NCBI RefSeq assembly: GCF_963678975.1
Contig: NC_089281.1
Span: 27,793,151 to 27,857,150, forward strand
Origin: Dysidea avara
Taxonomy: Eukaryota
Reading direction: 5' to 3'
Length of the DNA stretch: 64,000 bases
A program made the translations under genes and the position numbers. This document shows, piece by piece, positions 1-61,700 of the stretch. Numbering within the stretch: the stretch's first letter is position 1; each line of letters starts with the position of its first letter. The notes under the pieces are model-generated. The model was not told the DNA's origin. It was given only the letters and a program-made list of their open reading frames with translations, and searched no databases.

Positions 1-1030
1 TGGCTGTTGTATTAGAGTATCTCGAGTCAGACAAGGAGTGTGCATCTAGCTACACCAATAAGGTCTTGTTTTCTGCTATGTAAATAGCTAGATTGTGAAG
101 AGGTGTGGTCTCTGTACTCTATCGCTTTTGCATGGCATCGCCAGATAAATTGCGAACAGGATCCCAATCATGAAGTTGCAGATATCTAGCTAGTAAGGAC
201 TGAAGTGCTTCAAAAATCCATAACTCTGTGGTGTCTAAATATGCTACTGAAAGAAAGTGTTGATACGGAAAATTAATGCCTTGAAGTATTATTGTTTATC
301 CTCTAGGTAATCGGCATAAGTCGTTCTTCCTTACCAGATCAGTTGATACATATACAACACAAAGAGCAAAGTAGAAACAAATACAAAACACAGAACAAAA
401 AGTACATTAGTTCTAAAATAATAATAACTACACTACACATAAATAGCTACAAGCAGGACACGCACAAATTTAACACTCGTAATTACTTAAGTACACAGAT
501 TTGGCATAATTGACAAATACAGGACAAGTTAACTTTAAGTTACTAGGAAATGATGCTGTTGAATTGATATAAGTAGAGGCACTACAACAAAAATACTTCC
601 TAGTTCTGGAGAGTTTAGATCTACTAGGATTTGCAAAATAGTCACCACAAGAAGAAGACAAGCAGCTTGATTGGAGATAAAAGAAAAGACAAAGCGCAGA
701 GAGCCTACACTCATCGGAACCCCAAAAGGCACATCCCACTGGTGAGTTTGTTATTGTGGCATAAAATGGTGACCATGTGCTGCTTTGTTTAGGCTCTAGC
801 CTTGCAACTGTGGTCAGTGAGGTAGTAAGACTAAAATTCAAGTTTTGGCATTTTTAAAAAATTCTATATCCGCCACCTGTAAGTGTTTTGTTATATATTA
901 TATACCAGTACTATCCTGTAAAGGTGATTTTTGCCGTGTAAGATGTCCCTAGGGTGATTTTCAAAGGCAGAATTTTGGGCGGTGCATGAAATTTTAAAGG
1001 TGATCCCTACTTAAACAGTACTACTGTACC
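1..1030. mobile_element. Copy A of a ~1-kb non-coding dispersed repeat (window starts inside it). It is ~85-90% identical to 38080-38848 and carries a ~360-bp internal insertion (about 295-655) absent from copy B.
   Basis: Direct alignment by eye. Shared blocks include ...gttgtattagagtatctcgagtcag...ccaataagg...agctagattgt(g/t)aagaggtgtggtctctgta..., ...gaaagaaagtgttgatac(g/a)gaaaattaa..., ...ccccaaaaggcacatcc(c/g)actggtgagtttgttattgtggcataaaatggt..., ...ggccacctgtaagtgttttgttata..., ...ggcagaattttgggcgg.... ORFs 470-841 and 535-732 inside it have no recognisable content. Confidence 0.7.
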
Positions 1031-2395
1031 GTTTGATACTATAGTATTGTAATTGTGGACAATACCAGCAATCCACAATATCAGAATCCCATATAATTAT
1101 ACTACATTTAATACACTTGCACTATCAAACCATTATCTGAGCGATAAACATACCTCATAAAATGTACATTTTAACCTGCATTCTCCATGGTGAATTGGTT
1201 ATTATTCAACCAAGCTGAACTGTATGGCACAGTGGTGGATATAGGGACCACAGAAACTCATTTAGTTCAGTGGGCACTGGAGGAGAAGAAGGTGACAAAT
1301 TGCCCAAAAAACCAAGTGCTGAAAACAATGGAAACATATATAGCCTCAAGATTTATAGATTCATACAATTGTGAAAAAACCTGAAACATGTCTAATTGAT
1401 AAGTTGGAGTGGCTGCTCCAAATGCACCTTGTTCACTCTTGTAATTAACTGGCAAAAAACAGTCAGGTTAATCTGTTTAGTCAAAGAAGGTTAATTAAAA
1501 ACTCAGTTTAAAGACTTGTAGTTTTCATTGTTGTTGAATTGTGAAGATGGTATTATTATTAAACTAGTTATGGTTATATTTCGCATTCCAATCGCACAGT
1601 TGATTTGAAACTTAGTGGGCATGTAGCTACATTATTACACACTGAATTGTATCATATATGGCAGAGTTTACAGATGCAGTGATATCGTATAGCAACTGGT
1701 CGATAACTTATACGTATATGGAAAATATACGTGTGGTCAATAACAAATACCAGTGGTCGATATAATTCCTGTTTTTCCTGTTCAACAGCGCTGGTCAGGT
1801 TTATGAGAGGAAACAAAGGTATGTGGGTTACTTTATGGGCTGAATTTTCACAGCCTATAGCACAGTTCGACATTCTCCCTACCCTATAACTGACCCTGGC
1901 ACTATCCAGTGCCTTGTGAATAGCAGATTCAATGATTTCCAACATTCACCAAACTACCAAAGGAGTTGTTGATTACCAGGTCATTGCAGCTGGCAGAACC
2001 AGTGAATACTTGTGACTCCATCGATTTTGCAAAAACACTTCTTTAGACAACTTAGCTGCTGCATGCATGCAATGCAAAACCATATAAGTTTACATTCTAT
2101 TGTGTACTCAGACACTTCACTACACTCATCACAGTTGTATATACCCAGCCTGATCATTTCTAGTTCATATCAAAAAAGTATCAATGATTAACTGTAAATT
2201 AAACATTTAACGAATTTAAAATAACAGAAAATAACAGTCTTTCAAACAACTTCCAATTTATGGGGTTTAGTTTATCGGCAGAATCTTTGATGAAATGTGA
2301 ATCCAGTGATATACAAAATTTTGCATAGCAACGAGTGGAAAAGAAAAGAAAGAGCCTTGTATCGCAACCTTACACATCCAGGTAAAAAATAACAT

Positions 2396-3010
2396 GGTGA
2401 AAAACCTTGTTTTTCATGATAAAATGTAAAATGTTGCTGGGGATCAAATCACCACTGGGTCTGGGATTTTTTTCTCCATTCTTCACATTTTAGTTACATG
2501 TTTCTGACTCCCTGTATTCACAGGCTTTAAGCCTTTTTAGTGGGATAGCATTCACAGAACAAATGGCCTGGTGGATTCTTAATCAGTATGCTCCAACTCA
2601 TAGAATGAGACCAAGTATATAGGATAAGGGCACCCAGTGCACTTTTGAGGTTTGCATTGCAATACTGAGGTAACTAATTTTTCCAATAGAAAATTGTATG
2701 GAGCATGCATTATGGCAGAGTCAACTGTGAACAACTGCCAATATAACAATGTTACAACAAAAGTTCAATTTAAGGGCTTTGTTTTATGTATGGTTTGTCA
2801 GGCAAATTATGGATTCTAATGGGCACACTTCTGCATTTTTGTATATAACATAATATTTTGTGAATGCTATCCCACTAGGGACCTGTGAGAAGGCTAAAGC
2901 CTGTGAATACAGGGAGTCAGAAACATGTAACTGAAACGTTGAAGAATGCAGAAAAAAATCCCAGACCCAGTGGTGACTTGATCCCCAGCAACATGCAGTC
3001 TAGGCATGTG
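2396..3010. mobile_element. Foldback/MITE-like element: ~150-bp inverted arms (2396-2560 and 2870-3010) around a ~300-bp core; a partial extra arm copy at about 3075-3150.
   Basis: The left arm ...ggatcaaatcaccactgggtctgggatttttttctccattcttcacattttagttacatgtttctgactccctgtattcacaggctttaagcc... is the reverse complement of the right arm ...ggctaaagcctgtgaatacagggagtcagaaacatgtaactgaaacgttgaagaatgcagaaaaaaatcccagacccagtggtgacttgatcc.... Confidence 0.65.
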
Positions 3011-5260
3011 GCAAAGGAGCCACAACAGTTGGGATCTCTGCATTCAACCTGCACTTAAACATCTACTTCTTGCCAGCAAATGGTTTTATTCTGCGAATGC
3101 TGTCCTACTAGGGACCTGTCAGAAGGCTCAAGCCTGTGAATATATGTGGTATTTTCCATAGGGCAAAAACAATGGCTGTTGACAAGATTTTAAAACTGAT
3201 TAGTGGGACCAAGCTAAGACTACAAAAAGGACATGGCGTAGTTAGTGCTGTATTAAGTTGACAGTTTCCAATAGCCTTTTTTGATATGTTGACCCATACA
3301 CCAGGGTAATAATACATTGGGAACAAGTGCTAAAATAGCTAGTGTAACAATGTCATAACATAATGTACATACTGTCTCAAGTCAAGTACAGCAAGCTACC
3401 TGATAGCCCACGTTAATCTTAAGAAGCCAATAAGTAACCACAAACAGATTTGCGCCTTTCCATGAATAAATTAGTGGTAAAAGGAAAAGTAGCATAACTA
3501 GCTTTTTGAAAGGATTGCTGCAGCGATTTTGTGATATAAAGTGCTTATAACCAAGTATATAGAATGTGGTAAGCCACGAATCCATACACCGGTGTCCAGT
3601 TGCAATGATTCACTATGGCACTTGTATGTCTTCATTAATTAGTGGGCGCCTATTCTATTGCTGTTAACATGATAGGCTAAATAATTTTCCAAAACAATAT
3701 GCTAGGCGATCAAAATTTTGACTTATAACAGGTACAAAAATATCTCTACAACCCTATGGATCAGAGAATTGTCATGGATCGTAAATAAGATACCATGTTC
3801 TAATGATAGACTTTAATCCATACAGTTAGTAAGAATGATGAAACTAGGCCTTAGGAAAACTTCAAAGTCCAACTAGTGTGGTTGGCGTATTATTTCAGTA
3901 GAACAGTTCTGATTAAATTCCTTTGTAGCTCAGTACTGTGATAGTAGTGCCTAGGTTTGCTTGATAACTCAATCACTTACTATAATGCTATATCTTACAA
4001 TGGTACAGTGAAACAAAACAATTTCCTATCCTGTGAAAAACAAGATCCAATATTTGCACTGATGGGTTATGGGGTAGCCTCCACCTTAAACTCTGACCTT
4101 ATAAGCTTTCAAAATGAAGCTTCACAAATAAAATGTAATACTGGAAACTTGGTTATGAATACATTTTTACACTTTCGACTGAGTAGGCTGCCTCAAAGTT
4201 TATGTAATCAACAAATTAATTAAATAAATACTACATAAGGCTTGCAATAAAGTTGACCAGACCAAACTGAAGACTCCAGGTGCGTGCAACAACATTTGCT
4301 GCATTACATCATCATCCTACTCATTGCACACTGAATACCTTAAATCATGCACTTCAGTTGCAGACAAACACAGCTACAAATGAAAGCACTTTTGAAATCC
4401 AGATAGTTTTACTCTCATGCTGTTATAAGAGTAGCTTAGACTGTATAACTATATATACCATAATACACTAAGTTCACGATGTATACTCAGTGTAAATAAA
4501 TAAGGTGTCTGATCATGAAAACATGCTTCCGGCAGATACTCTTTGTGGTTTTAGAAGCTCTGACATTGGATTGTATCAACCATATATAGTAAATCTGATG
4601 CTTTAAACTAACTAACTAACTATAGAGCAAGATTCAGCTGCAGCTGTGATACTTGATTGCTATATTTCAATGTTTGAACAGTAAAGTGCTGCTGACAATT
4701 GTCACCGTGAAATTGGTTTGCAGGGTCACATGCCTGGTAAAGCACCACACCTCAGTTGTGGCATCCATGCAGTGTGCTCTCGATGGCCCATGAAAATCTG
4801 AGGGAGCAGATGATTATCATGTCCAGCTGTACTCATAACCACAGCAGGTCTCCAAGGTGAACAGCCTCTAATTGATGGAACAATGAAAGTATAAAGGAAG
4901 TTTTGATAGGTATTACAATGAATGTTGATACTGAAATGCATACAGTGGTAACATAGTTATTTTGCTACAATCAGTTGTCAATGCAACTATAGTAAACCTC
5001 CAACTCATGGAAGAGCTCAGGTATCATTTCTGTTGAAACCACAGAAACTCATAATATATGCCTTCTAGCTATACTTTTAGTGAAAGCCCATGTATTAGTG
5101 TAAGCTCAACTCTTTAATACTTAGGAGTGACATTGATAAATTAAAATGCAGTGCACAACTATTTGGTTGACTAGTCATTCTTATACAACACACTGTATCC
5201 ATGCAATTAACTAGTCTCACGTGGCCAGACCACTTTTTCTCCATGCAGCGTTTATCAATT

Positions 5261-6115: not shown

Positions 6116-6939
6116 TTTACTTCTTTTTGTATTTTCAAAATCAAGGCTTTGAGGCTTACTATTCCTTCTTATCTACAGATCATAACTGCTACAGGAACAA
6201 TGATGATCATACAAGTGATAGAGAAAATTACCTACTCATCCCGGACAGCTACCAACAAAGAGAGAAAACCATCAGTATTATTGATGATGAAAAAACAAAC
6301 AGTTGAGATAAGGGTGTCCTCGGACACATGCTACCAACTTTGCTTGTTCATGTATGTATGATGACCATAATATAAAGTTGTATTATATGTATTTATTTCC
6401 ACTATAGTGATTTATATGAAAATGAAGGTACGCATAATTGTAGGATATTTTATTTTGCAGTGATTGTTCTATTAGAGTATCTCGATTTTTCATCGTGCAA
6501 ACATGAAAATTAAGATGCAGTTGCTCAACTTTAAACAAAGCAAATCCTGCACCTTTTTTATTGGGATGTGATTTTCAGTCTGTTGTATCACAAGTTTTGC
6601 TAGCATAGCACTTATTATGATGATTATGATGATGATGATTGGTGAGAGTCGGTCATACTAGTCTGCTTGCAGACCACCTGGGGGCAAGACTAAGTTAATA
6701 CTACCAATATACCACTGATCGATACGAAAATGGCTCCGATTTGATGAAATAACTACTAGACTGAACCTCAAAGTGATACAACAATAGTATGGTGTTAATG
6801 CTCTAATAGAGTGCACAGTTTTGCTCTAATAGAACACACATAGAATGTTCTATATTAGATTTTCTATTGGTAGATCTAAGTTTTACTTATAGAGTAGATT
6901 TAAGCTAGAATTTTCATTTATAAGGTAGAAATTAAATGA

Positions 6940-7680
6940 AGTGATCAGCCAAGATAGCAGTGGTTCAGTGGTTAAGGATGCAGGTGTTAGGTATGAGGTC
7001 CTTGGTTCGAACTCTGGTAAGTTTTTATTATTTTCGACATTTTTTTGCACCTTTTTTCTGCTCTATTAGAGTATCTTGATCCCATGATTTTACACTCATT
7101 TGGTTTTGCTTTATAACTCTGTAGCTGTAAGTCTGTAGCCGTTCTAACCACCAAAAGGTACCGCTATGAAAATCAGCCTTTGTACACACGAATTTTTAAG
7201 TTATTCCTCTACTCAGTTTACCCTGTAGGCATGACAACAAATTGATTTTGTTTTATGTGAATAATTGGTCATAACTCATGAACTGCTCATCAAATTTGCA
7301 CAAAACTTGGTACTAGAATTCACCCTTAGACCTCTTTGAGTGTGCCAAGTTTCAAGGTGATCAGTTAACACATTTGTGTTTTATAGCAAATTTTCAAAGT
7401 GTACGAAAACACAAAGAAAGAAAAAAAACGAAGAAATCAAAATGAAATTTTGGCCACCCATATCTCGAAAATGGCTGGGGTGATTTCCTTAAAATTTGGT
7501 ATGTGGGGTAGCCTACCTGGTGGGCACCTCTGCAGTGAAACTGGTTTCAATCAGATGAGGGATCATGGAGCTACAAAGGTGTGAAAATCGCACTTTCTTT
7601 CTTCCTGTCAATACTCACAGTGTGGCGTGCTGGTTTCTTGGGCTGCACGACACACTACTGTGTGTCTTGATACAACATCA
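6940..7680 (+). mobile_element. tRNA-derived SINE-like element or 5' LINE fragment. It has a tRNA-like head (about 6950-7030, A-box-like TTCAGTGGTTAAGG and B-box GGTTCGAACTC). Its 3' ~120 bp (7560-7680) is homologous to 19010-18890 on the minus strand.
   Basis: Head gcagtggttcagtggttaaggatgcaggtgttaggtatgaggtccttggttcgaactctgg. It does not fold into a clean cloverleaf (T-stem mismatches), so it is not called a tRNA gene. Shared segment gagctacaaaggtgtgaaaatc(g/a)c(a/g)(c/t)tttctttcttcctgtcaata(t)actcacagtgtgg...cacactac(t/a)gtgtgtcttgat. Confidence 0.4.
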
Positions 7681-10029: not shown

Positions 10030-10275
10030 ATACAAGAAGTAGAAAGAAAAATTAGGAATCTTAAGTTGGATTAGGGATGAAAAAAAGAAGTGAAACAATA
10101 AAGGAATAGCTAAACAGTTGTGAGGTTGTCCTATACCTGCAGTTACAGACTGAACTAGAATAAGGATTAAATATATCTGCAGGTAGAGACAACCCCTCTA
10201 GTTTCACAACTTTCCCTCTTGTTTCACTACTTTTTTGCTTTGGTTCCTAATCCAACTTAAAACTCCTACTACTTG
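10030..10275. mobile_element. MITE with a palindromic core (ctgcagttacagactgaactagaataaggattaaatatatctgcaggtagagac). Same family as 29490-29670, and possibly 45050-45585.
   Basis: TIR-like ends aaattaggaatcttaagttggattagggatgaaaaaaagaagtgaaacaa / ttgtttcactacttttttgctttggttcctaatccaacttaa. 29505-29560 carries the related ttagggatcatagcaaaagaagtagtgaaacaa. Confidence 0.55.
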
Positions 10276-10600: not shown

Positions 10601-13600
10601 AATTCAGCTAAAGTGCCAAGCTGCATTCATGAAGGAAAAGTGAGGCTGGTTTCTGGGTGATATTTTTGGACAAGAAAGCCCAAATCTCCATGATCCCTAG
10701 TGAATATACCGTACTGTATGATTCAGAAACTGCCTTGCCTCATGCTAAGGCACTCGGCATTTAGCTATTATTAATCATGCAGTTAGTTACCATATGCATA
10801 CATACATTGCTTGAGTGTGGGTATACAGACACAACAATTCACCAAAATTAATGGTATCTATAGCCTATATGTACACAATCACTACATAAATAACTTACTG
10901 CTGGTTTCTCTTCAGTTTAGCAAGCTTCTCTTGTGCTTTGCTTTTGTTTGGTGCTATCACTTTGAAAGCAGCCACTGCAAAAAAAAAATTATCGAAATTT
11001 ATCCATCATCAGCAACATTGAAGTTGTCATTTAACCTACTTCGCAAGTCTGGAATGTTTGGATCATCTGGAGATATCACCGGAAGCACCGACAACGTTAA
11101 GTGTTCCGAGCTACAATTGAACACAAATAGCGCATGACTAATTATGCGGATGATAATATGGCTACCGCGGCTACGAAACTTTACTGTGACCCCCCGGCAG
11201 TACGAACGGTATTGCATGTTGCTAAACTGACAGACCTGCAAAACACGTAGCCTTTTCCTTCCTTCGAATGTAGGAATATTATATCCCCAATGCGCAACGA
11301 TTGTTGTTGCTGCTCCCGCACAGCCATGAGCTACTAGCTACTAGGAGTCGCTGGAGTTTAGACTTTGACTGTCGTACACACCAGATGCTTGTTTCAAAGG
11401 ATGAAGCCAGAATTATTGAGGATTTCCCACGAAACTAAAGCGGAAAAACATGAGACATTGCACCACTTGTGATTCAACAGACTCTAGCCTGAGTTAATTA
11501 CAATGTGTGGGTTCCTCAGACAGCACTACTCATCAACCACTCATACTACTGCTCCAGCTTTACTTATTCTTAATTTACTAGGCAGGCAGCACAGCTGGTT
11601 TGCCCGCTAGGATATAAAATCAACAATATTACAGTGCATATGTTAGAGTATAAAGCTAGCTAATTGTGACATCAAGAGTTCTCCCTTACTTTTATTATGA
11701 ACTCTTGGTAACATTGATGCTGGACTCAATGAGTCAAACACGGATCCTGGAATGTATCTGTGTAAGCTATGCATTATAAAAGATGGGATTATGGGCCTGA
11801 TATTGGTGCTCCGTAAATAGATTCAGCTGACACCAAAGCCTGCAGGACATTACCCTTGGGCAATTGTCTGCTTGCATATTAGCAAGCATGTCTGTCCTCT
11901 TATTGTTTCCGGCTTGAGTGCTTCCTGAAAAAAAAACACATCGGTTAGTTTTCCTCTGCATTTTGGGGATAACCCACCCAATTTCCTCTGAAACAAAAGA
12001 GCACCGCCCATGTCACATTAACTATTTTGTAGTTAAAGGAAACAGGGGGGTTCAAAGGGTTCCATGGAACCCCCCTTTTGAAAGAGCCTCTTTTACTGGA
12101 GATACTCTAATAGAGCATGCAGTCAAGATCGAGATACTCTAATAGAACAGTCACAGTATTCTTAAGAGGAGCAGTGTAGCAGGCTACGTGTGGAGTTATA
12201 AAGAAAGTAATATAGTTGGTGAGGAGCAGCTATTGTCAGCAGGTGATGACTTTTTTTTTTAATTTTAGTCTTCGACTTAGGTGCACCTTTGACTTACAGC
12301 TAGGCTGAAGTTGCAATTCCAGAGTGGAACCCCCCTTTTAAAAATAAAGTCTGGATCCGCCCCTGGAAAGAAGAGATTGAGGAGGAGGGAAAGATAACGA
12401 CTCGCGAACTGTTTACTGCAAAAATACTGGAATGTCAGACTGGCCCCCCTTATAGACCTCTTTGAAGTGCACACCTAAATTATTGGAATGTGCTAGGCGG
12501 TTGGGTCAAAACCTGCATGACTAGTGTGACAATTTAATCCAGGCAAGCTCGTCCTGCTAGTTAACCCTGTTTAACCTGCTGTTAAACTTGTAATAAACAA
12601 TCAATAAGTTACAGTGCGGTCTAGCTACTCAACAACACTGAAACTCCATCATTGCATACAGCAGCTGCTACTCAGCTACCTGACTCCGGCCTACATCAGT
12701 TGGTCAGGGAACTAATAATGAACTGGACAAGAAAGTGAAGAAATGGTCAATAACTATATTGTCTTATAAGTTGGTGTCTAGCTAATACATACTGAGGATT
12801 TCCAAATCTTTGCAACACCTAAATATGTATGGCTGAATAAAGTTTTGCTGAATGAATCCACAAGTTTAATACACCATGCAGGCAAGGTGTTGGTAAACAA
12901 CTAACAATAGGGTTAGCTTGGTCACTATGCATTGTGGTATTCATTAGAAGGTATCAACAACAGGTTTGAGATGGTACCATATGTAGCAGCCTGCCTGTTC
13001 TAGATCATTCTGTGCTATAACAGGGAAGCAGTGGCAGCTAAGGAACAGCAGTATCACTATTATGTTTGCAGTGCTGGAAAAGTTTTATTGAGTTGATATT
13101 AAAGCTTAATACAGGAACTTATCAAGTATGAATCCTACTACAACATTATCATCAATCCCCATGGAGCTACAAGACCATCCATCCCAGGATGCCATCATGG
13201 AGATAATGTGGCTGTGGTAGGCATGCACTTTCAGCTGGCCATTTAGATGCTATTGTAGCAGCAAGTATATCTTATTTCTGAGTCACAACTACAGCAGTTT
13301 GTTTGGCTCCACAGCTGACAATCATGTATGTACGCTAATGCAGGTAAGTAGGGTACTATTAAGCTCTTTAGTTAGTTACAAGGCTTGGCACGCCACAGCC
13401 ACAAGCTTGTTGCCAAGGAGATCCAGCATAGGGAATCCACCATAGGGGAGACAGCAGACTGATAATACACCTGGACACTGCATGCATTTCATGGAAGATA
13501 GCATAAGAAATACATTCTGTAGAGGGGTTTAGCACAGGCTGAGATAACACCTCACTTCCTGTTTGAACAGGATGGTTAGTTCTGTGATGTGATAATTAAA

Positions 13601-14389: not shown

Positions 14390-14880
14390 ACTTATAAATT
14401 TGCTGTATGGTAGGGGTGCACTGCCAACTTGCTGTATGGTAGGGGTGTAACTATTGGCTTGCTGTATCTACCAGCTTGGTGTATGGTAGGGGTGTACCTA
14501 CCGGCGTGCGGTTTGGTATGAGTGTACCTACCGGCTTGCTGTATGGTAGGGGTGTACTTACTGGCTTGCTGTGTACCTACTGGCCTGCTGTATGGTAAGG
14601 GTGTAATTACCAGCTTGCTGTATGGTAGGGGTATACCTACTGGCCTGCTGTATGGTAAGGGTGTAACTACCGACCTGCTGTATGGTAGGAGTGTACCTAC
14701 CGGCTTGCTGTATGGTAGGGGTATACTTACCGGCCTGCTGTATGGTAAGGGTGTAACTACCGACCTGCTGTATGGTAGGAGTGTACCTACCGGCTTGCTG
14801 TATGGTAGGGGTATACTTACCAGCCTGCTGTATGGTAGGGGTGTACCTACTAGCTTGTAGGGGTGTACCTCCAGTGTTGC
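14390..14880. repeat. Minisatellite of ~30-bp units (consensus ttgctgtatggtaggggtgtacctaccggc), about 16 copies. It contains an exact 90-bp (3-unit) higher-order duplication (14642-14731 = 14732-14821).
   Basis: Units are read directly; related degenerate units at 13690-13745. ORF-track entries 14392-14997(-) and 14522-14860(+) are repeat-driven open frames (PLPYSRPVG.. / LLYGRGV..), not genes. Confidence 0.9.
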
Positions 14881-15167
14881 CTGGCAGTTAGGGGCTTGTA
14901 GCAAGCTATACAATTCATGAATAAGTTGGCAGCAACAAATACTGGTGTTCTCTGTCAGCACATACACCAACCTGTTATTTGGGTTATCAAAAATCACAGT
15001 TTAACTTCTGCTGCTGCAAGCTTTAATTTTCTGGTAATAGCTGACTCAACAAATCAGTACAGGAATCCCTGTCTCATTGTTCATTGACACTTGGTAAATC
15101 TGTGGGTACCTCAGGTCTCATCAATTGTATGATTACCCGAGATAATTCCATACCCAACTGGTCCTGG

Positions 15168-27238: not shown

Positions 27239-36790
<9,552 letters not shown>

Positions 36791-36915: not shown

Positions 36916-39900
36916 ATGCACTTAGCTGCAGCTATCTTCGCTTTCTTATTCTTTGGACCTTACACGGGTATGCTAGTATATAGACAGAATGTGGTAGTTA
37001 ATCCTGTATATTGGTGTCTGCTTGCTTTTCCTGCAGTAGTGACCGCAAACAACTACAAAGAGATACGAGTTACCCATCAACGTGTGACGTCAAGTACCAT
37101 ATATTTGCGATGGAAGAGACATTTAAGTGATGGAGAGCCTCTAACCACCTTTAAGGTACAACTATTAATGTATTTGAACAAGGTGTTTCATTTACTGTAG
37201 TGTAGGTGGAATACGTGGGTCACACAGATTATTACGATGACACTGGTGCCATACAGAACATGGTTTCACAAGGAATGGAAACTACACAGACAGATTATAT
37301 AATCCTATCCAATTTAGTACCTTGTACCAAGTACACCATTACTATCACCGGATGGAATACTGTGACAACCATTACAAGCAAACCTCAGAACCTCCAGACT
37401 TTAGCCAATGGTAACTATCACCAGCTTCACGCTGCATTTAGTTATGACAATTTGGTTTGTTCTTGCCACAGTGGTGGGGCCAGCAGCAACTCCATCTGTT
37501 GCTACTCAGATGAGGTCAGATGGTCATTCTCATGCTGTGATCACTATTGACCCAGTTGCTGAAAACATGGGCTGCAAAAAGTGAGTGCACTAATATGGCC
37601 ACAAACTTTTAACCCAATTATCAAATTCATTTTGGCAAATAAGTGCTGTTTACAATGACATTTGGTAAATGTGCATGGCTGAGTGCCAACTATGATCCAT
37701 TGAGTAATTCAAGTATAGCGTTTAATTATTCAAAAAAAGCATTTGTCAAGCATGTTACAGTACTTTTAAAAACTGTAAATTTAAAAATGAAGTAGGAATC
37801 TATGCAACAAAAAAGAGAGATGGTATAGCAGCATAGCTCAGTGGGAAAGTTCTACTTTGGCATTAAGCAAAATAATTGTTATGTCAATGTGCTAAAGTAG
37901 GAACTTTCCCACTGAGCTATGCTGCTATACCATCATTCATCTCTCTTTTTGTTGCATAGATCCCTACTTCATTTTTAAATTTACAATACTAGTTTGTTTA
38001 GTTTTTTGTTGTGTAGCACAGCTAGCTACAATGTAACTTGTGACTGTTCTATTAGAATATCATACATGACTGTTGTATTAGAGTGACTGTTGTATTAGAG
38101 TGACTGTTGTATTAGAGTATCTTGAGTCAGCCAAAAGGTGTGCAGCTAGCTAGACCAATAAGGGGTAAGGTCATTTTATTTACTGTTAAGTAAACAGCTA
38201 GATTGTTAAGAGGTGTGGTCTCTGTATTCCATCGCTATTAGTCCACCTAGATTTTTAATTAATGGGCGTGGTCGCGAACCTATTGCGAACGGGATCCCAA
38301 TCGCAAACTTGCACATATCTAGTCTTATAGTAGTGCCAGGACTGAAGTGCTTCTGAAATCCAGCTCTGAAATAATTCTGTGGCATCTATATATTGTTGCT
38401 GAAAGAAAGTGTTGATACAGAAAATTAACGCCTCGATATGGTTTCATTGGATGAAGAAGAAGACAAACAGCCTGATTGAAGATAAAAGACAAGCCGCAGA
38501 GGGCCTACACTCGTCAGAACCCCAAAAGGCACATCCGACTGGTGAGTTTGTTATTGTGGCATAAAATGGTAGTCGTACACTGCTTCGTTTGGCCTCTAGC
38601 CTTGTGACTGTGGTCAGTGAGTAGTCAGTGAGGCAGTGAGACTAAAATTCGAGTTTTGGCAATTTTAAAATTCTATATTCGGCCACCTGTAAGTGTTTTG
38701 TTATATTTTATGCTGTTTTATATATTATATGGACTAGTACTGTTCTGTAAAGGTGATTTTCGTTACGTAAAATGTCTCTAGGATGATTTTTAAAGGCAGA
38801 ATTTTGGGCGGAGTGCGACATTTTCAAGGCGATCCCTACTTAAGGTTACAGTATAGTCACGGGCAATCATTCAAAATTTTGAACTATCGATACTTTTGAG
38901 AAGTCCATAAAACCAGGCTAGCAGCGTGAAAAGTTTTAAATGAAGGTGAAGTCCTTCATATTTAATGTTTTTATGTAGCTACAGTGTAGTTTGAGGCAGG
39001 TGGAACACTACAATTTGTTGTAGTAACACATGTAAGCCATCCCGTACATCGCTCAGCTCCAGCTGTCACTACCATGTTTTTCCGCCACCAAATACAGCAA
39101 AAGCTGTAGGCTCTATTGGCATTTCTGGGGCATAGTGATACGTATATTACATTTATTAGGTCCTGTGGAAGCGTTTTTGGCATGTTTCTTCCCAGTGACT
39201 CAGATACAAACCTTCAAAGAGCTTGTTTCATTCGAAAAAAGTACTAAAAGTTCAATAAAACGCCTATACAACCAGTAACTTAAAAAATCGCTTCCACAGG
39301 ACCTATTTTTTTTTTTTTGACAGGACCTAAATATTTTAGTTGTCATGGTAACTTGTGATGAAATTATAAGGATTTTTTGTTTGTAATTACCTGGGTCAAT
39401 TATCAGCTGTGCTGTCTCGACCCAGTATATAATCATAATTCAGTAATCTGTTCGTCTGGTTTTTGGCGGGGCGTTTTTATTAAACATCGCTCTATTGTGG
39501 ACCACACACCCAAGAACAGTCGTTCTGTAGTAAAAACAAACAAGCACAATTAGTTGTATTGCTAACACCATAGATAGTATAGACTCTGGAGTCTATACTA
39601 TATATGCTTACACAACACAGTTTTTGAAATTATTTATCCCTGCTTGGGTTAAAGCAGGTTTTGTAATTTGTTCCGCCCACGCATTTTAAACTATTCCGTA
39701 ACCTTAAACGGTACTACCGTACCATTTGATACTGTCCACACAAATTTACTTCTTTGCATCAATGAGTGTTAGAGTGAAATACACACTGCAATCAGGGACA
39801 GGGGTGGAGCTACCAGTCTGTGTTGATCAGGGTTCAACCTGACCACTTATGTCCATTACCTTCTTTCTGGGATGGAGTATGCCCCCAGACTTTCCTAGGT

Positions 39901-41702
39901 GTAGCATACTACACATGCTGTGTATGCTCTGTGCATTTTGTCCTACAAAGCACCCACTGTACAATAATTGCTTAATGCCAGGTATACCAGAAATCCCTTT
40001 GGATTTTACACACTACTTGAACTTTGAAAAATTAGATATCCAGAATCTAGAATCTGTCATGAAGTAGGACACATTTTTAATCCTTTATCAGTAATGGTTT
40101 CTCACATGATGGCAACACTTGCAGTTTGGTGAAAGATTGACATACTCTAATAAAGCAGCCAGGCAATATAAACTACTCTAATAATATAACAGTCACTTAG
40201 CTGTGGTAAAAACCTCTTTTCAAAATTCCTGCGTAAGTCTCTGGTAGCTACAATCAAATTATTACCTTGTGTGTAACTCTAGTCTGATGTCTGTTTTGTA
40301 TAATGAACCATGCCAACATTCACTGTAGACACTATTAGTTGCAGTATATGCATACTTTCTAGGGAGGGGAAAATTTTTGCTTTTACACCTCCTGAAATTG
40401 ATCTTTGCCCTTCTGAAAATGTCTATTGTCTTGGTTAAAATTAAAAAGACATACAAACTATTAGTCAAAATTGGGTTTTTGAGGTTTCCAGGAACCAGTC
40501 AACTCTAATAGAGCAGTCAAACACTCTTATAAAGCAGTCACAGTGTTCTGAGCAGCAGCTATGTAGGGATTTTTATGTACTTTATCAGTGATAATACTTT
40601 TAATATAGTTAGTTGAGGGCAGTTGTTCTCAGCATGCAGTTAGCTACCTTTTTTTTGGTCTTCACCTTCTTGATCAGAAACCAGTCATCAAAAATCCTAG
40701 AACCGTCCTTGAAATTTTCTGCAGCACCATAACTGGTTACTTAACCTCTCAACTTCAAAAAACCTTATTTTGTCCCCTCTAAATGGAAGTTGTAGAAAAA
40801 TCATTGTCTTTACGGCACTGAACATTAGAATTTATCATAAAATATTATATAATAATATACACACTCATAGGTATCAAGTGATTGTAATGATGACCAGCTA
40901 CCTTAGTAGTGTTAATGAGTCACATGATACCAACCTAGAGGTAGCTCTGGCCAGTCAGCAGAATAACACCTACATCACTGCTGAATTTTCTGACTCACAC
41001 ATACCCACTACATTTGAGCTAGGAGATGGCAAGTGGTATGGAAATTATATGAACCAACCCCTAGAGCCTGGAATGTGTTACCAAACAGCAATCAGAATAG
41101 CATTCATCGAAGTACGTCATCTCTTAAACTATTAAATATAATTCCTGCACTCTGCATACAGGAAAACAGCAGGTCAGAGAATACATATAGTCCACTATCA
41201 GAACCATGGTGTTCAGGTAACTATCATGCAAACTATAACTCCCAATTATCTTATTATATTTACAGATCTACTTGTGCCAACACTGACAGCAGCTCTTGAA
41301 GGAGTCAAAAAGGGTACAGCTGTGAAGTCCCTTGCCCTAGCTGTTGGGATCATGATTTCATTGTTTGCAATTACTTTTATTGGATGGGGGATCTACCTTG
41401 TATGTCGTAAAAGAGGATTAATATTTTACTCTGACAAGTAAGAGCTCCCTTACTGTAAAAATGTTTACTTCTAAACTGTTCATAGAATAATTAAGGGTCC
41501 ATCACTGTGGAAAGTCATCAGAGGAAAAAAGGGTCCAACAATTATAGAACAGCTGGTCAAAGTCAATTACCATGATGCTCAGGATTATGATTACTGGAAT
41601 GATGAAGCTGATTTGTCTCCTGGAATTAATGAAAGCCCACATAGAAATTCTGAAACTTCACTAGAACATTTATATGATGCTCCAACAACTGATTCAGAAT
41701 AA
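36916..41702 (+). CDS. Type-I single-pass membrane protein with N-terminal signal peptide, fibronectin type III domain(s), one TM helix and a short Tyr-rich cytoplasmic tail; 7 coding exons.
   Basis: Exons, +/- 3 nt: 36916-37155 (MHLAAAIFAFLFFGPYTG...ITVTHQRVTSSTIYLRWKRHLSDGEPLTTFK); 37206-37410 (VEYVGHTDYYDDTGAIQNMVSQGMETTQTDYIILSNLVPCTKYTITITGWNTVTTITSKPQNLQTLAN; W..Y/LxxLxPxTxY FN3 pattern); 37472-37580; 40871-41111 (..FELGDGKWYGNYMNQPLEPGMCYQTAIRIAFIE); 41162-41216; 41266-41437 (TM: SLALAVGIMISLFAITFIGWGIYLVCRKRG); 41486-41702 (..YHDAQDYDYWNDEADLSPGINESPHRNSETSLEHLYDAPTTDSE*). Phases are consistent across all junctions. The 3.3-kb intron 3 (37581-40870) holds repeat copy B and other TEs. 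No kinase or phosphatase domain. Confidence 0.6.
37765..37985. repeat. Near-perfect ~95-bp-arm palindrome/foldback. The inner arms contain a tRNA A-box-like TAGCTCAGTGGG.
   Basis: ...aaatttaaaaatgaagtaggaatctatgcaacaaaaaagagagatggtatagcagcatagctcagtgggaaagttctactttggc [loop] gctaaagtaggaactttcccactgagctatgctgctataccatcattcatctctctttttgttgcatagatccctacttcatttttaaattt... Confidence 0.6.
38080..38848. mobile_element. Copy B of the ~1-kb repeat seen at 1-1030. It begins with 21-bp terminal tandem repeats (gactgttgtattagagt x3) and is interrupted near its 3' end by a nested insertion.
   Basis: Aligns to copy A block by block but lacks A's 295-655 insertion. Its 3' tail resumes at about 39706-39730 (ccttaaacggtactaccgtaccatttgatact = copy A cttaaacagtactactgtaccgtttgatact). 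Confidence 0.7.
38849..39705. mobile_element. Nested ~857-bp non-autonomous DNA-transposon-like insertion flanked by TTAA, with ~14-bp imperfect TIRs (ggttacagtatagt / actattccgtaacc).
   Basis: In copy B the sequence runs ccctacTTAA|ggttacag ... ccgtaacc|TTAAacggtact, while copy A has the uninterrupted ccctacTTAAacagtact. This is a filled versus empty site with an apparent TTAA duplication (piggyBac-like target preference). The insert also carries an internal 15-bp stem, ggtcctgtggaagcg / cgcttccacaggacc. Confidence 0.55.
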
Positions 41703-42599: not shown

Positions 42600-48844
<6,245 letters not shown>

Positions 48845-57044: not shown

Positions 57045-58292
57045 TCATCTTTGTGTGCAAGTCTGATGTGATCTCTTTGTCAAACAGTGATGCCTACACA
57101 TGTCAAAAACAACTTGACACTTGTCATCACATAACAAGCTATACGTCACCTTATCAAAGTACATCTTTGCTTTCTCTTCCGACCGTTCAATTCCCTGGCC
57201 CAGTTGAAGACACCTGGCTAATACAAAACAAGAAATGGCTATCCCTCTGTGCACTAGGTGAGGTATGAATTGTTCTTGAAGAGTCTGTGCTGCTTCTTTG
57301 TCCAAATCACAGATTCTAGTAACATTGAAGTTTTCTTACAGGTCTCATGTGATATGTACATACTTCAAGGCATTTTCTACAGCCCGTGAGTAGAGTTTAC
57401 TGTTGAAATATTCACAACTGAGCAACCCATTGGCGTACATGCAGCCTCTTATAGATGATTTCTTTAGCCATTTTATTCCAGTAGTTTTATCAGTGGTACA
57501 ACCATGCCCACTTAACATCATTTGACCTAGTGCAGCTGTGTAAAATAAACTGGATGTTATTGTAACAAAAATAATGACTCTTTACCCATTGATTCTAGGT
57601 GTCCACTTTCTGCAGCCTTTTGGTGCCAGTGAAAAGCCTGTTAAATGCATAATTTTAGTATTAAGTGATACATTTTTCCTACCTGCTGGAGGTTTAAGCT
57701 GTCTTTTCTTGAGAATAACATCCCAAGAGCATTCTGGGCTTTGATGCAGCCAACATTTTGCTGGTTGGAAGCATTTGCTGCCAGTATGTACCATTGAATG
57801 GCTTCTTCATCTGACTGATTGATACCAAATCCTTGGAAGTAAGCCTGTCCTATGCTGAACTGGGCACTAGGAACTAAGTGGTAGTGTTCCTTCTTTGTTG
57901 CCTGAGCAACTGCCTTCATATACTGCATTCCTTTATGCTAGGCAGTAAAACAAAACTTCAAAAAAGAAAAATGATTTGTTACGTACTTGATCTTCAGCCA
58001 CTCCAAGACCATCATAGTGCATGACTGCTAGTTGGTAGGTAGCTTGCAAGTTACCTTTTTTGTCAGCCATGTTAAAATAGTTGAGAGCATTGGGATAGTC
58101 TTTCTTCTCAAAGTAGTATTGACCAAGTGAGAAGTGTGCATAGGCGTTACCTCTCTCACTTCTATCCACCATACAATCCAGCCATTCCTGACTGCCAATC
58201 ACATAACTGGTCTGTTTCTCATCACCACTGGGAGGAGAAGTGGTCTCGTGAGCACTATCATCCCTAGGAACCGCTTCAGAGTCTGTTGACAT
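57045..58292 (-). CDS. LRP2BP: Sel1-like-repeat protein orthologous to LRP2-binding protein; 4 coding exons as modelled, with the 3' end uncertain.
   Basis: Minus-strand exons: 57987-58292 (MSTDSEAVPRDD...GNAYAHFSLGQYYFEKKDYPNALNYFNMADKKGNLQATYQLAVMHYDGLGVAEDQ, then GTACGT); about 57672/57683-57937 (HKGMQYMKAVAQATKKEHYHLVPSAQFSIGQAYFQGFGINQSDEEAIQWYILAANASNQQNVGCIKAQNALGMLFSRKDSLNLQQ...); about 57365-57560 (..ALGQMMLSGHGCTTDKTTGIKWLKKSSIRGCMYANGLLSCEYFNSKLYSRAVENALK); about 57045/57150-57315 (..EAAQTLQEQFIPHLVHRGIAISCFVLARCLQLGQGIERSEEKAKMYFDKV..). Matches my recollection of vertebrate LRP2BP (..HQATYQLGVMYYDGLG.., ..[27 protein letters not shown]..). Coordinates in the 57300-57700 region are uncertain by up to about 10 nt. 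The stop may be at 57045 or in an unseen terminal micro-exon after a GTGACG donor at about 57149. Confidence 0.65.
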
Positions 58293-58719: not shown

Positions 58720-61700
58720 ATGGTAGATAGCACGTTTACGACTCTTGTTCCTGGAAAGTTTATTTTAATCGGTAGAAAATCGTGTGACATAACTATCAAT
58801 GATGTTCGCATCTCCAGTGTGCACTGCGAGGTCGGATCGGTCAAGATGTACGAATGGGACATGTTCCCAGCTTGTACTGTATACGTTGAAGACAAGAGTA
58901 GCAATGGAACGTGGATATGTCGTAAGATTGGTCTGTCATCTTGGGGAGCCTACTGCAAACTAACAAAGGGATTAAAAATGAGTTTTAGTCCAGGAGATTT
59001 TATCTTGTTACTACCACCAAGTGTCTCTGCACCAGATTACTGTGCTTTCTCACTGGAAGCTGATGAAACTTCTAATGTGTTTGGTTTAAAGCATCTTACA
59101 GCTGCTGATGTTAAAATTAGAGTTGATGCTAAGGCTGACACTAGTCTGGGAACTGTATCAATAAAGAGAACTTATTCTAGAGGTGAAACATCACCGGATG
59201 GATGTGCTACTAAGAAACCATGTTTATCATCACCCTTACCACCTGCTGTAACTAGTGATAAAGGCAGATCCTCAAAGCATGCAGTAGCAGTACCTGTATC
59301 AATGAGTACACATGGCTCAATGGAACAGTGTCCCATCTGTCTTGGTCTTTTCCCTGTAAGTGAACTAGTGGCACACTCAGAATTGTGTTGCTCGTCAGAG
59401 GTGTCACTGGTTGACGGTACTGATGGGATAGATAGATCTTCACATGATGTGCTTTTAGCTGTTCCTAGTAGCTCTTCTGGAGTTATTGAACTTGAGCAAT
59501 GTATCCACTGCCTGCAGGATTACACTGTTGCTGAATTGGTCGATCATGTAAATATCTGTCCAAAGAAATCAAAATCAACAGTATGGGTTTTATGTTTGTA
59601 GAGTGTGTGTATGTGGCATCATTGTTAATTTCACATGTACACAGGCGGATGTGACAGAAGTAGAACATTGTCAACATTGTCTTGGTCTATTTCCATTGGA
59701 TGAAATAGTCAGTCACTCATTGACGTGTTCCCACAGGGCCACGTCCACAACTGTTAGCTATTACCTCATAAACCATTACATCATGTGAGCTATTGTTAGG
59801 ATAGTACAATGGGTGGTGATAAGGAGGAGCTATTGGAGAGATGTATGCACTGTTTTAGGGATTTCCCTATTAGCGAACTGGTCCGACACATGCCAGAGTG
59901 TACTGGCGATATGTGTGGACCAAAGGAACGATTTAAAGGCTTCGTCCCATCTGTTCATGATGTATGTTGACAAAGTAACAGTACAATTTTGTGGTGTATC
60001 CATTCACTGGATTGGACTACTGGACTGGACTGGACTACTGGACTGGACTACTGGACTCACATAAAGTTTGCTCAAATACCTTTTCCAACCACTAAAAGTG
60101 ATTAGCCATATGATCATTACTTTGTATACCACACACTCAGGGTTCTCAGTGATTTGTCTTGCGTTTAGAGGCACATACAAGAACTGTAATCTAGTTTTAG
60201 TGGTCTAATGGTATGATAAATTTGTAATCAATGTACAGTGTAGGTTGAATTCTTAAAAATTTGTACATTACATATGGTTTTTCTTACCTGCCTGTTAGAT
60301 GGTGTGTGCATGCATTGAGAAGCATTTCTCTCACTAACTGAACACTGCACACTCGTTGCTATTTACAAGCGTTATAAACCAAGGAGCTTGCCAATCTACA
60401 GGGTATATGCTGAAAGGTGAGGGAATGCTACATTATTTCAATATACTTGCAAATATAAAACTGACTGAATTTTATGTCAATGTGTGCTATTTCAAAACAC
60501 TGACAGATACATTTAGCAGTGTTAACAGTGCACAGTGCTTGTGTTGTTGCTAGCGGTAGGCAATTTATTTTTGATAACGAGCCATGCTGAGGTCTTAGTG
60601 TAGTTTTTGTAAATAATGTGCAAGTTTTTATGTCTTGTGTGCAAGTCTTGTCTTGTAGTGAATGGTATGATTTCTAAAATACTTCTATGGTAAAGTGTAG
60701 CTATAAAAGGCAAGAAAACAAAGAAAAGTTTGAGTCCAGTAGTCATCCAGTCCAGTGAATGGATATACCCACGATTTTGCACTACCACAAACTGTAAAGT
60801 TCTTTGGATGCTTAAAAAGCATTTGTGGTATACTTGTTTTTATTATTCATATTTTGTGTACACAGATTGATGCCATGGCAATGTCAGTACTAACAGATAC
60901 ACAAAGAGAAGCTGTTGACTATGTGCTGCAGCGGTCAGAGGCCGACTCTCGGAAAGTGTTTCCAAAACTTCTGAAGAGGGTGAAAGGCTTGGGATATGAT
61001 GAGAAAGATCTAGAAAAGTATGACACTAACAATTTGGGTTTGTAGTTGGTGTATGTAGCGTTCACCCTAGAGTTACTTTTTGTATGTAACACCAATCAAG
61101 TACTGTAATATATATTATATCACTAAGATCCTTCAGATCTTTATTATCTTGTCTGAACTCATTAACTGTCTAGTGTAAAAATGACCAGAGTATTTCACAC
61201 TTGTGTCCATTAGTATTACAGAAGTATATGTTTTATTAGAACAATTGAATGGACTAAATGGGCTTACCCAATTTACTAGCTCTAGGAACGCTAGTGTATA
61301 AGATTCACCATGCTGTCTCATTTCCAATCCACAGGACATTACTTTGGGTGAGGCTCAGTGCCCCAATAATCATTCATATCCACCTTGATCGAGTACTCAG
61401 CTTCCTAGTCAAGGACACTCATTATCGTAACTTATTTGAGACCAGGACTGGTAGTGGGTGTCTGGATACTTCAGCGAGGTCCTCATGGGAGGTGTGTCTT
61501 GTGTAGTATGTTCTTGGTAATGCTCACTTCATTTTATAGGACAGAATATTTAACAATGTTTATCATGATAGTGAACCATTTGAGAGAGTGAAGTATGGCG
61601 TCTTAAACATTGGTCTGTGTGTGTGTGTCTGTGTGCGTGTAGTGAGTGTGTGTGTCTATGTTGTGTTTCTGCTTGATAAGTTTGCGGTACTGTAAAAGTT

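Follow-up and report, generated by a model that had tools for sequence, protein, structure and literature searches.

The window, the whole 64-kb stretch of DNA that was analysed, has a GC content of 38% and is nuclear DNA of the sponge Dysidea avara. By exact protein match it lies on contig ctg11850l (2.1 Mb) of ENA assembly ERZ25068803, and two of its open reading frames share 90%-identity clusters with the D. avara RefSeq proteins XP_065921051.1 and XP_065921055.1. Two related copies of a host repeat lie on its plus strand: copy A at 1-1040, where it is cut by the start of the window, and copy B, which is divided by an insertion into a left part (38041-38843) and a right part (39704-39733). 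The inserted element, delimited by comparison of the filled and empty sites, occupies 38844-39703 on the plus strand and is a non-coding, non-autonomous transposon of 860 bp and 37% GC with terminal inverted repeats (TIRs). Direct reading places the left copy of its putative TTAA target-site duplication at 38840-38843 and the right copy at 39704-39707, and the counterpart in the empty site is the single TTAA at 1011-1014 of copy A, located by reading and by alignment of the two repeat copies.

Across the junctions, copy B reads cgatccctac-TTAA(38840-43)-GGTTACAGTATAGT...ACTATTCCGTAACC(38844-39703)-TTAA(39704-07)-acggtactacc, and copy A reads tgatccctac-TTAA(1011-14)-acagtactact with TTAA present only once. 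Deletion in silico of 38844-39707, which removes the insert together with one TTAA, leaves copies B and A aligned as one block through the junction (423 columns, 79.7%, E 1.9e-108). The sequence-only reading of this DNA had proposed a filled and empty site pair with exact boundaries, TTAA on either side of the insert and short (~14-bp) imperfect TIRs; the unbroken alignment after deletion, the TTAA copies at 38840-43 and 39704-07 and the TIR comparison bear it out on all of these points, and its insert length of ~857 bp is corrected to 860 bp.

A repeat search places the 5′ TIR, GGTTACAGTATAGT, at 38844-38857 on the plus strand and the 3′ TIR, with the reverse complement GGTTACGGAATAGT, at 39690-39703 on the minus strand. 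The two match at 12 of 14 positions with the outermost six bases perfect, and a match of 12/14 or better is expected by chance with a probability of ~5e-6 at fixed boundaries. The TIR consensus of the element is GGTTAC[A/G]G[T/A]ATAGT, and its outer termini, taken over the first 11 or more bases, are GGTTACAGTAT and GGTTACGGAAT. Taken together, these data make it very probable that the insert is a class II, cut-and-paste TIR-transposon insertion in the D. avara nuclear genome. With its 14-bp TIRs, two flanking TTAA copies and non-coding sequence, the element has the structural features of a miniature inverted-repeat transposable element (MITE). Its 860 bp make it longer than a typical MITE and bring it to the upper size limit of the class or past it.

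The duplicated TTAA had also been presented as an established target duplication. TTAA does stand on both sides of the insert and once in the empty site; the claim was overstated, since TTAA is palindromic and, with one insertion available, a duplication of TA or of 3 bp (TTA or TAA) fits the same filled and empty sequences. A duplication of 4 bp is inferred here in preference to one of 2 or 3 bp.

The element shows no coding capacity. None of its open reading frames (ORFs) contains a Pfam domain, which classifies the insert as a non-autonomous cut-and-paste DNA transposon, and tblastn searches with Kolobok and piggyBac queries detected no transposase remnant anywhere in the 64-kb window, in agreement with the earlier description of the element as non-autonomous. 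The concatenated six-frame ORFs of the element gave no match among 5.8 billion proteins; as none of the element ORFs tested by exact look-up is present in the protein collection, this null result says little about copy number. The window likewise contains no tRNA gene and no Rfam match at the gathering score. Within the element, a repeat search combined with a TA scan identified a TA-flanked inverted repeat at 39157-39305 with 22-nt arms that are 95% complementary and 105 nt apart, and this may represent a small MITE nested within the element, or else belong to the element's own structure. A palindrome of 38 bp (89%) at 39569-39606, found by the repeat search, has the TIR-like motif AGTATAGAC in each of its arms and may be a subterminal transposase-binding repeat.

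The repeat that received the element is itself composite. The left part of copy B opens with three to four tandem copies of TGACTGTTGTATTAGAG, and the right part is a tail containing the hairpin AAACGGTAC..GTACCATTT and the end of the repeat. BLAST resolves the homology between the copies into three blocks: A 1-284 with B 38101-38436 (71.5%), A 649-1014 with B 38454-38843 (79%) and A 1010-1040 with B 39703-39733 (28/31). Copy A carries an extra 365 bp relative to copy B at 285-648, and the two copies are ~20-28% diverged. The homology to the right of the insertion extends for only ~30 bp because the host repeat ends there, its 3′ end lying ~26 bp past the TTAA. Two tail modules on the minus strand, C (28991-29028) and D (44066-44099), are relatives of the same family; both stop at the same point as the A/B tail, and both have TATA at the position of the A/B TTAA. 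The host repeat has the head motif GTGACTGTTNTATTAGAGTATCTYGA, and its tail reads GATCCCTAC-TWWA-CAGTACTACTGTACYGTWTGATA. The head motif is 25 bp long; its core has nine occurrences in the window, where 0.1 would be expected, often in two to four tandem copies and in both orientations. The region 29752-29972 is also homologous to 39990-40204, which adjoins copy B. Copies A and B thus belong to a modular family of dispersed repeats and are not the products of a simple two-copy duplication. A Helitron reading of the host-repeat tail, considered on account of the hairpin near the 3′ end, was rejected, as the tail has no CTRR end.

The bases adjoining the TTAA copies bear most directly on the superfamily of the inserted element. 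TTAA duplications combined with 5′-RR...YY-3′ termini define the Kolobok superfamily (PMC9587614; PMC6004289), which differs from piggyBac in these termini and has been recorded in sponges (PMC9587614). With ends of the form TTAA-GG...CC-TTAA the D. avara element follows the Kolobok rule for termini, and on balance it is probably of Kolobok type, an assignment held with modest confidence. The Repbase rule for assigning non-autonomous elements aligns the termini over positions 1-11 with at most one mismatch (PMC4455052), and the D. avara termini exceed this limit against every Kolobok element obtained, the TIRs being unlike past GGT. The Xenopus T2-MITEs (Kolobok, e.g., Xmix; PMC6004289) resemble the element in having TTAA on each side, RR 5′ and YY 3′ termini, short TIRs and non-coding sequence. 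They differ in their start, AGGRR rather than the GGTTAC of the D. avara element, and in size, 860 bp exceeding the typical MITE; a TTAA-AG... start is found in the T2-MITEs and in full-length Kolobok elements alike (PMC6004289).

Autonomous Kolobok elements provide a further comparison at the extreme termini. A profile was built from Kolobok transposase core sequences given in PMC9587614 (Data S5), and its search against the protein collection returned 1349 PF20700 proteins; the 120 matches listed of these 1349 are mostly insect, spider, cnidarian or unnamed, and none of the 120 is named Dysidea. Three of these loci, situated on long ENA contigs in sister holobiont assemblies of other samples, were fetched as examples of Kolobok termini only, and their Kolobok-type transposase genes (PF20700) match the profile with E values of ~1e-66 to 1e-69. 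In L002 (6949-9975, ENA assembly ERZ25070530) the element around the transposase gene has the ends TTAA-GGTGGTGTCCCACCCTCA...TGAGGGTGGGACACCACC-TTAA with an 18/18 TIR, and in L003 (6958-9776, ENA assembly ERZ25066852) the corresponding ends are TTAA-GGTAGAAACCCC...GGGGTTTCTACC-TTAA. The third locus, L004, contains an element of the form TTAA-GGTGGTACTACCC...-TTAA (225-4004) and a 566-bp MITE beginning TTAA-AGGGATTCC. A TTAA followed by a purine-purine start is common to all of the elements fetched from these loci, and three of them share the GGT start of the D. avara element, namely the two complete Kolobok-transposase elements of L002 and L003 and a third element adjoining such a gene. The L002 and L003 elements have the same TTAA-GGT...ACC-TTAA arrangement as the D. 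avara element, with the first and last three bases identical. They differ from it in their length of 2.8-3.0 kb, their transposase gene, their perfect 14-18-bp TIRs and their host organisms, and past GGT their TIRs are unrelated to those of the D. avara element.

Among the alternatives, an element of a TA-targeting group (Tc1/mariner/pogo, Stowaway-like) accounts for the filled and empty sequences exactly. Such an element would have duplicated TA only, its TIR would be AGGTTAC...GTAACCT, one base longer and matching at 13/15, and the outer T and A would belong to T-TA-A flanks. TA-flanked inverted repeats are common in the window, and one of them, at 39157-39305, lies inside the element; at two other seeming TTAA-flanked pairs (10061 and 37781) the TTAA is itself included in the inverted repeat or in the homology. 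This account needs a coincidence, a TA target situated within TTAA, which base composition makes ~1-in-10, and the GG...CC termini beside TTAA match those of the retrieved Kolobok elements. The termini presumably also differ from the starts typical of Tc1 (CAGT) or mariner elements, which counts further against it. Stowaway-like and Tc1-mariner MITEs are similar in being small non-coding TIR elements whose TA duplication is formally compatible with the site; they would require the coincidental TTAA context. A TA-targeting origin is on these grounds considered unlikely.

Assignment to another or undescribed TTAA-duplicating superfamily, e.g., Sola, or to a type with a 3-bp TWA duplication (PIF/Harbinger, Tourist-like) is similarly unlikely. 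Some Sola groups are TTAA-specific, and a single copy without a transposase does not fix the superfamily. A 3-bp duplication of TTA or TAA reproduces both sites if a terminal asymmetry of 1 nt is allowed, at the cost of breaking the perfect symmetry of the first six TIR bases. Less probable again is a sponge-specific TTAA-targeting lineage that is neither canonical Kolobok nor piggyBac and that perhaps prefers to insert in the tail, with its hairpin, of a second dispersed repeat family; were this so, element and host repeat together would make up a nested transposon-in-transposon system found in Dysidea alone.

The comparison of repeat copies also bears on the timing of the insertion. The sequence-only reading had placed the insertion after the duplication of the host repeat. 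The insertion does most simply postdate the divergence of A and B; the dating was overstated in assuming a two-copy duplication, as the copies belong to a dispersed family. The reverse history, in which the common ancestor of the two copies already carried the element and A later lost it, through precise excision or a deletion from one TTAA to the other, is very improbable. In its favour, TTAA-specific piggyBac-type transposons excise seamlessly (PMC7351741), and A and B are old copies with a divergence of ~20-28%. The tail relatives C and D, with TATA at the site, are also without the element, and for this reason gain in B is the simpler history. Whether by gain in B or by loss from A, the feature is a mobile-element insertion either way.

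The name piggyBac-like, under which the insert was originally described, does not agree with its terminal bases. The TIRs of piggyBac-like elements vary apart from their first base, a strongly conserved C (C[C/A/T][C/A/T]), and excision requires the terminal G (PMC5381638); the 5′ motifs of such elements include CCCTT, CCCTC, CCCAT and CACTA (PMC10813416). The D. avara element begins GGT and ends ACC and so departs from the piggyBac rule of a first C and a last G, its G...C ends contrasting with the C...G ends of piggyBac in both surveys (PMC5381638, PMC10813416), whereas its RR...YY termini fit Kolobok. The label is accordingly changed from piggyBac-like to Kolobok-like, with the superfamily provisional. 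Mobilisation of a piggyBac-type non-autonomous element by a piggyBac transposase, with insertion at TTAA and seamless excision, would explain the TTAA on both sides and the one intact TTAA in the empty site, and short TIRs with internal palindromic or subterminal repeats are compatible with piggyBac-like architectures (PMC5381638). MITEs derived from piggyBac share the TTAA target and apparent TTAA duplication, the short TIRs and, in some cases, subterminal repeats; they differ in the C...G ends of their TIRs (PMC5381638, PMC10813416). The window also shows no similarity to a piggyBac transposase, the best tblastn hit having an E value of 6.8 (query, the T. ni piggyBac transposase), and a piggyBac origin is very improbable. 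An origin as filler DNA taken up at a break, or as an artefact of assembly, would agree with a single copy that has no homologue in the window or in the protein, JGI or GTDB searches. It is scarcely credible, as it would lead one to expect neither the exact boundaries nor the second TTAA nor TIRs that match at 12/14 (chance ~5e-6).

The search for further copies covered the surrounding DNA and several sequence collections. A second copy of the element or of its TIR is absent from the 64-kb window, and a second copy is absent from the 8.4 kb to the right of it. When the 5′ and 3′ TIRs were each sought by exact match among JGI metagenome contigs and among GTDB genomes, collections that probably do not include the sponge genome, 4/4 scans returned 0 matches. 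The host repeat and two neighbouring putative exons gave no match in a search of the protein collection, and of 11 candidate ORFs close to the start of the window 0 are present in that collection; called ORFs near the element occur on one contig only. An apparent enrichment of TTAA-flanked TIR pairs in the window, four seen against ~0.2 expected, was dropped because the three pairs other than that of the element are spurious. One of them sits inside a long inverted repeat at 45070-45578, and in the pairs at 10061 and 37781 the inverted repeat or the homology continues through the TTAA.

For the preferred interpretation, a Kolobok-like insertion into copy B, the following course of events can be proposed. 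An autonomous relative would provide the transposase in trans, and this enzyme would bind the TIRs, GGTTAC[A/G]G[T/A]ATAGT, excise the element and integrate it at TTAA through staggered cuts, the repair of which would duplicate the TTAA. The target would have been a TTAA ~26 bp from the 3′ end of copy B, as a member of the dispersed modular repeat family, with copy A keeping the unoccupied site.

The biological importance of the insertion itself is small, as it adds one more non-autonomous DNA transposon insertion of an ordinary kind. Its use lies more in annotation and classification. Curated repeats for the D. avara genome have not been found so far, and the clean filled and empty pair, which fixes the exact ends of the element, can serve as the seed for a D. 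avara family consensus. The locus is also a worked example of the principle that TTAA flanks alone do not equal piggyBac, the terminal bases being what separates Kolobok (RR...YY) from piggyBac (C...G). Finally, the occupied site in copy B indicates that cut-and-paste transposition of the TTAA type was at work in this sponge lineage once the host-repeat copies had diverged.

The TTAA targeted by the 860-bp non-autonomous transposon (the element) lies at the base of a 9-bp hairpin within the tail module of its host repeat, a dispersed modular family. This module, GATCCCTAC-TWWA-CAGTACTACTGTACYGTWTGATA, is common to four host-repeat sites, which are found at 1001-1040 in copy A with its empty site, at 38830-38843 and 39704-39733 on either side of the element in copy B, and at 28991-29028 and 44066-44099 on the minus strand. 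The right arm of the hairpin in copy A is fully complementary to the left arm in copy B, and this pairing suggests that each copy is one mutation away from a perfect ancestral stem. In addition, 365 bp at 285-648 in copy A are absent from copy B, where the corresponding stretch (38437-38453) comprises 17 unrelated bases. The edges of 285-648 show neither a clean duplication nor a TIR, and the difference could reflect either an insertion in copy A or a deletion in copy B.

Inside the element, a TA-flanked inverted repeat at 39157-39305 with perfect ends (GGTCCTGTGGAAGC on the left and GCTTCCACAGGACC on the right) is followed by T12 and then a second ACAGGACCTA, and may be a nested Stowaway-like MITE. 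Elsewhere in the window, the foldback structure at 45070-45578 has 123-nt arms that are 99% complementary and separated by 263 nt, and has the appearance of a long-TIR or foldback element of very recent origin. The motif ATCCCTACTT, carried by its arms, recurs beside the host repeat's TTAA target and once more where the 37785-37974 foldback ends. This second foldback belongs to a MITE-like palindrome about 200 bp long (37776-37983), with arms around 37785-37860 and 37900-37974. It has the look of a TTAA-flanked element, but the inverted repeat runs on through the TTAA, and a TA flank at 37776/37982 is the better fit. The loci 10061-10260 and 29500-29660 hold foldback elements that are related to each other, measure about 190 bp and have the ends GTTGGATTAGGRA and TTCGATTAGGGAT. 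Their homology extends beyond the apparent TTAA flank of the 10061 locus (gtaaacaaacaagta...), and this TTAA is thus internal to a longer repeat.

The motif GTGACTGTTNTATTAGAGTATCTYGA, of about 25 bp, is dispersed through the window, with nine occurrences of its 16-nt core compared to 0.1 expected. Five of these are on the plus strand (10-25, 6470-6485, 7064-7079, 27946-27961 and 38110-38125) and four on the minus strand (12097-12112, 12129-12144, 29908-29923 and 40137-40152), with an additional occurrence of the motif a little beyond the window end (L005 11798-11849). It is frequently found in tandem in 2-4 copies, with a period of 17 bp at 38067-38118, and forms inverted pairs spaced 2-5.7 kb apart (6470/12144, 27946/29923 and 38067/40196). 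The host repeat may belong to an uncharacterised transposon family, of which this motif would be the TIR or a subterminal repeat.

The Kolobok element of L002, a locus from another sample (ENA ERZ25070530), is enclosed in a 13.7-kb structure (L002 2558-16281) bordered by long inverted repeats of at least 400 bp, with ends of TTAA followed by TGCGGCAATAGTAA. As DEAD/Helicase_C and DUF6589 genes also lie within these borders, the structure may be a large composite transposon.

Tandem repeats in the window include a long microsatellite of the (CA/TG)n type, built on an 8-bp register (34542-34899), and a minisatellite of about 13 units with a 30-bp period (14432-14917), which gives rise to spurious LPYS-rich ORFs. 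Genuine gene fragments are present at three loci, comprising a Sel1-repeat gene (57933-58292, minus strand; RefSeq name LRP2-binding protein-like), an FHA-domain gene (58720-59601, plus strand), and, about 3 kb from the element, a kinase-like exon (42955-43314, minus strand) that on visual inspection is similar to the C-terminal portion of a GRK-type (AGC) kinase.
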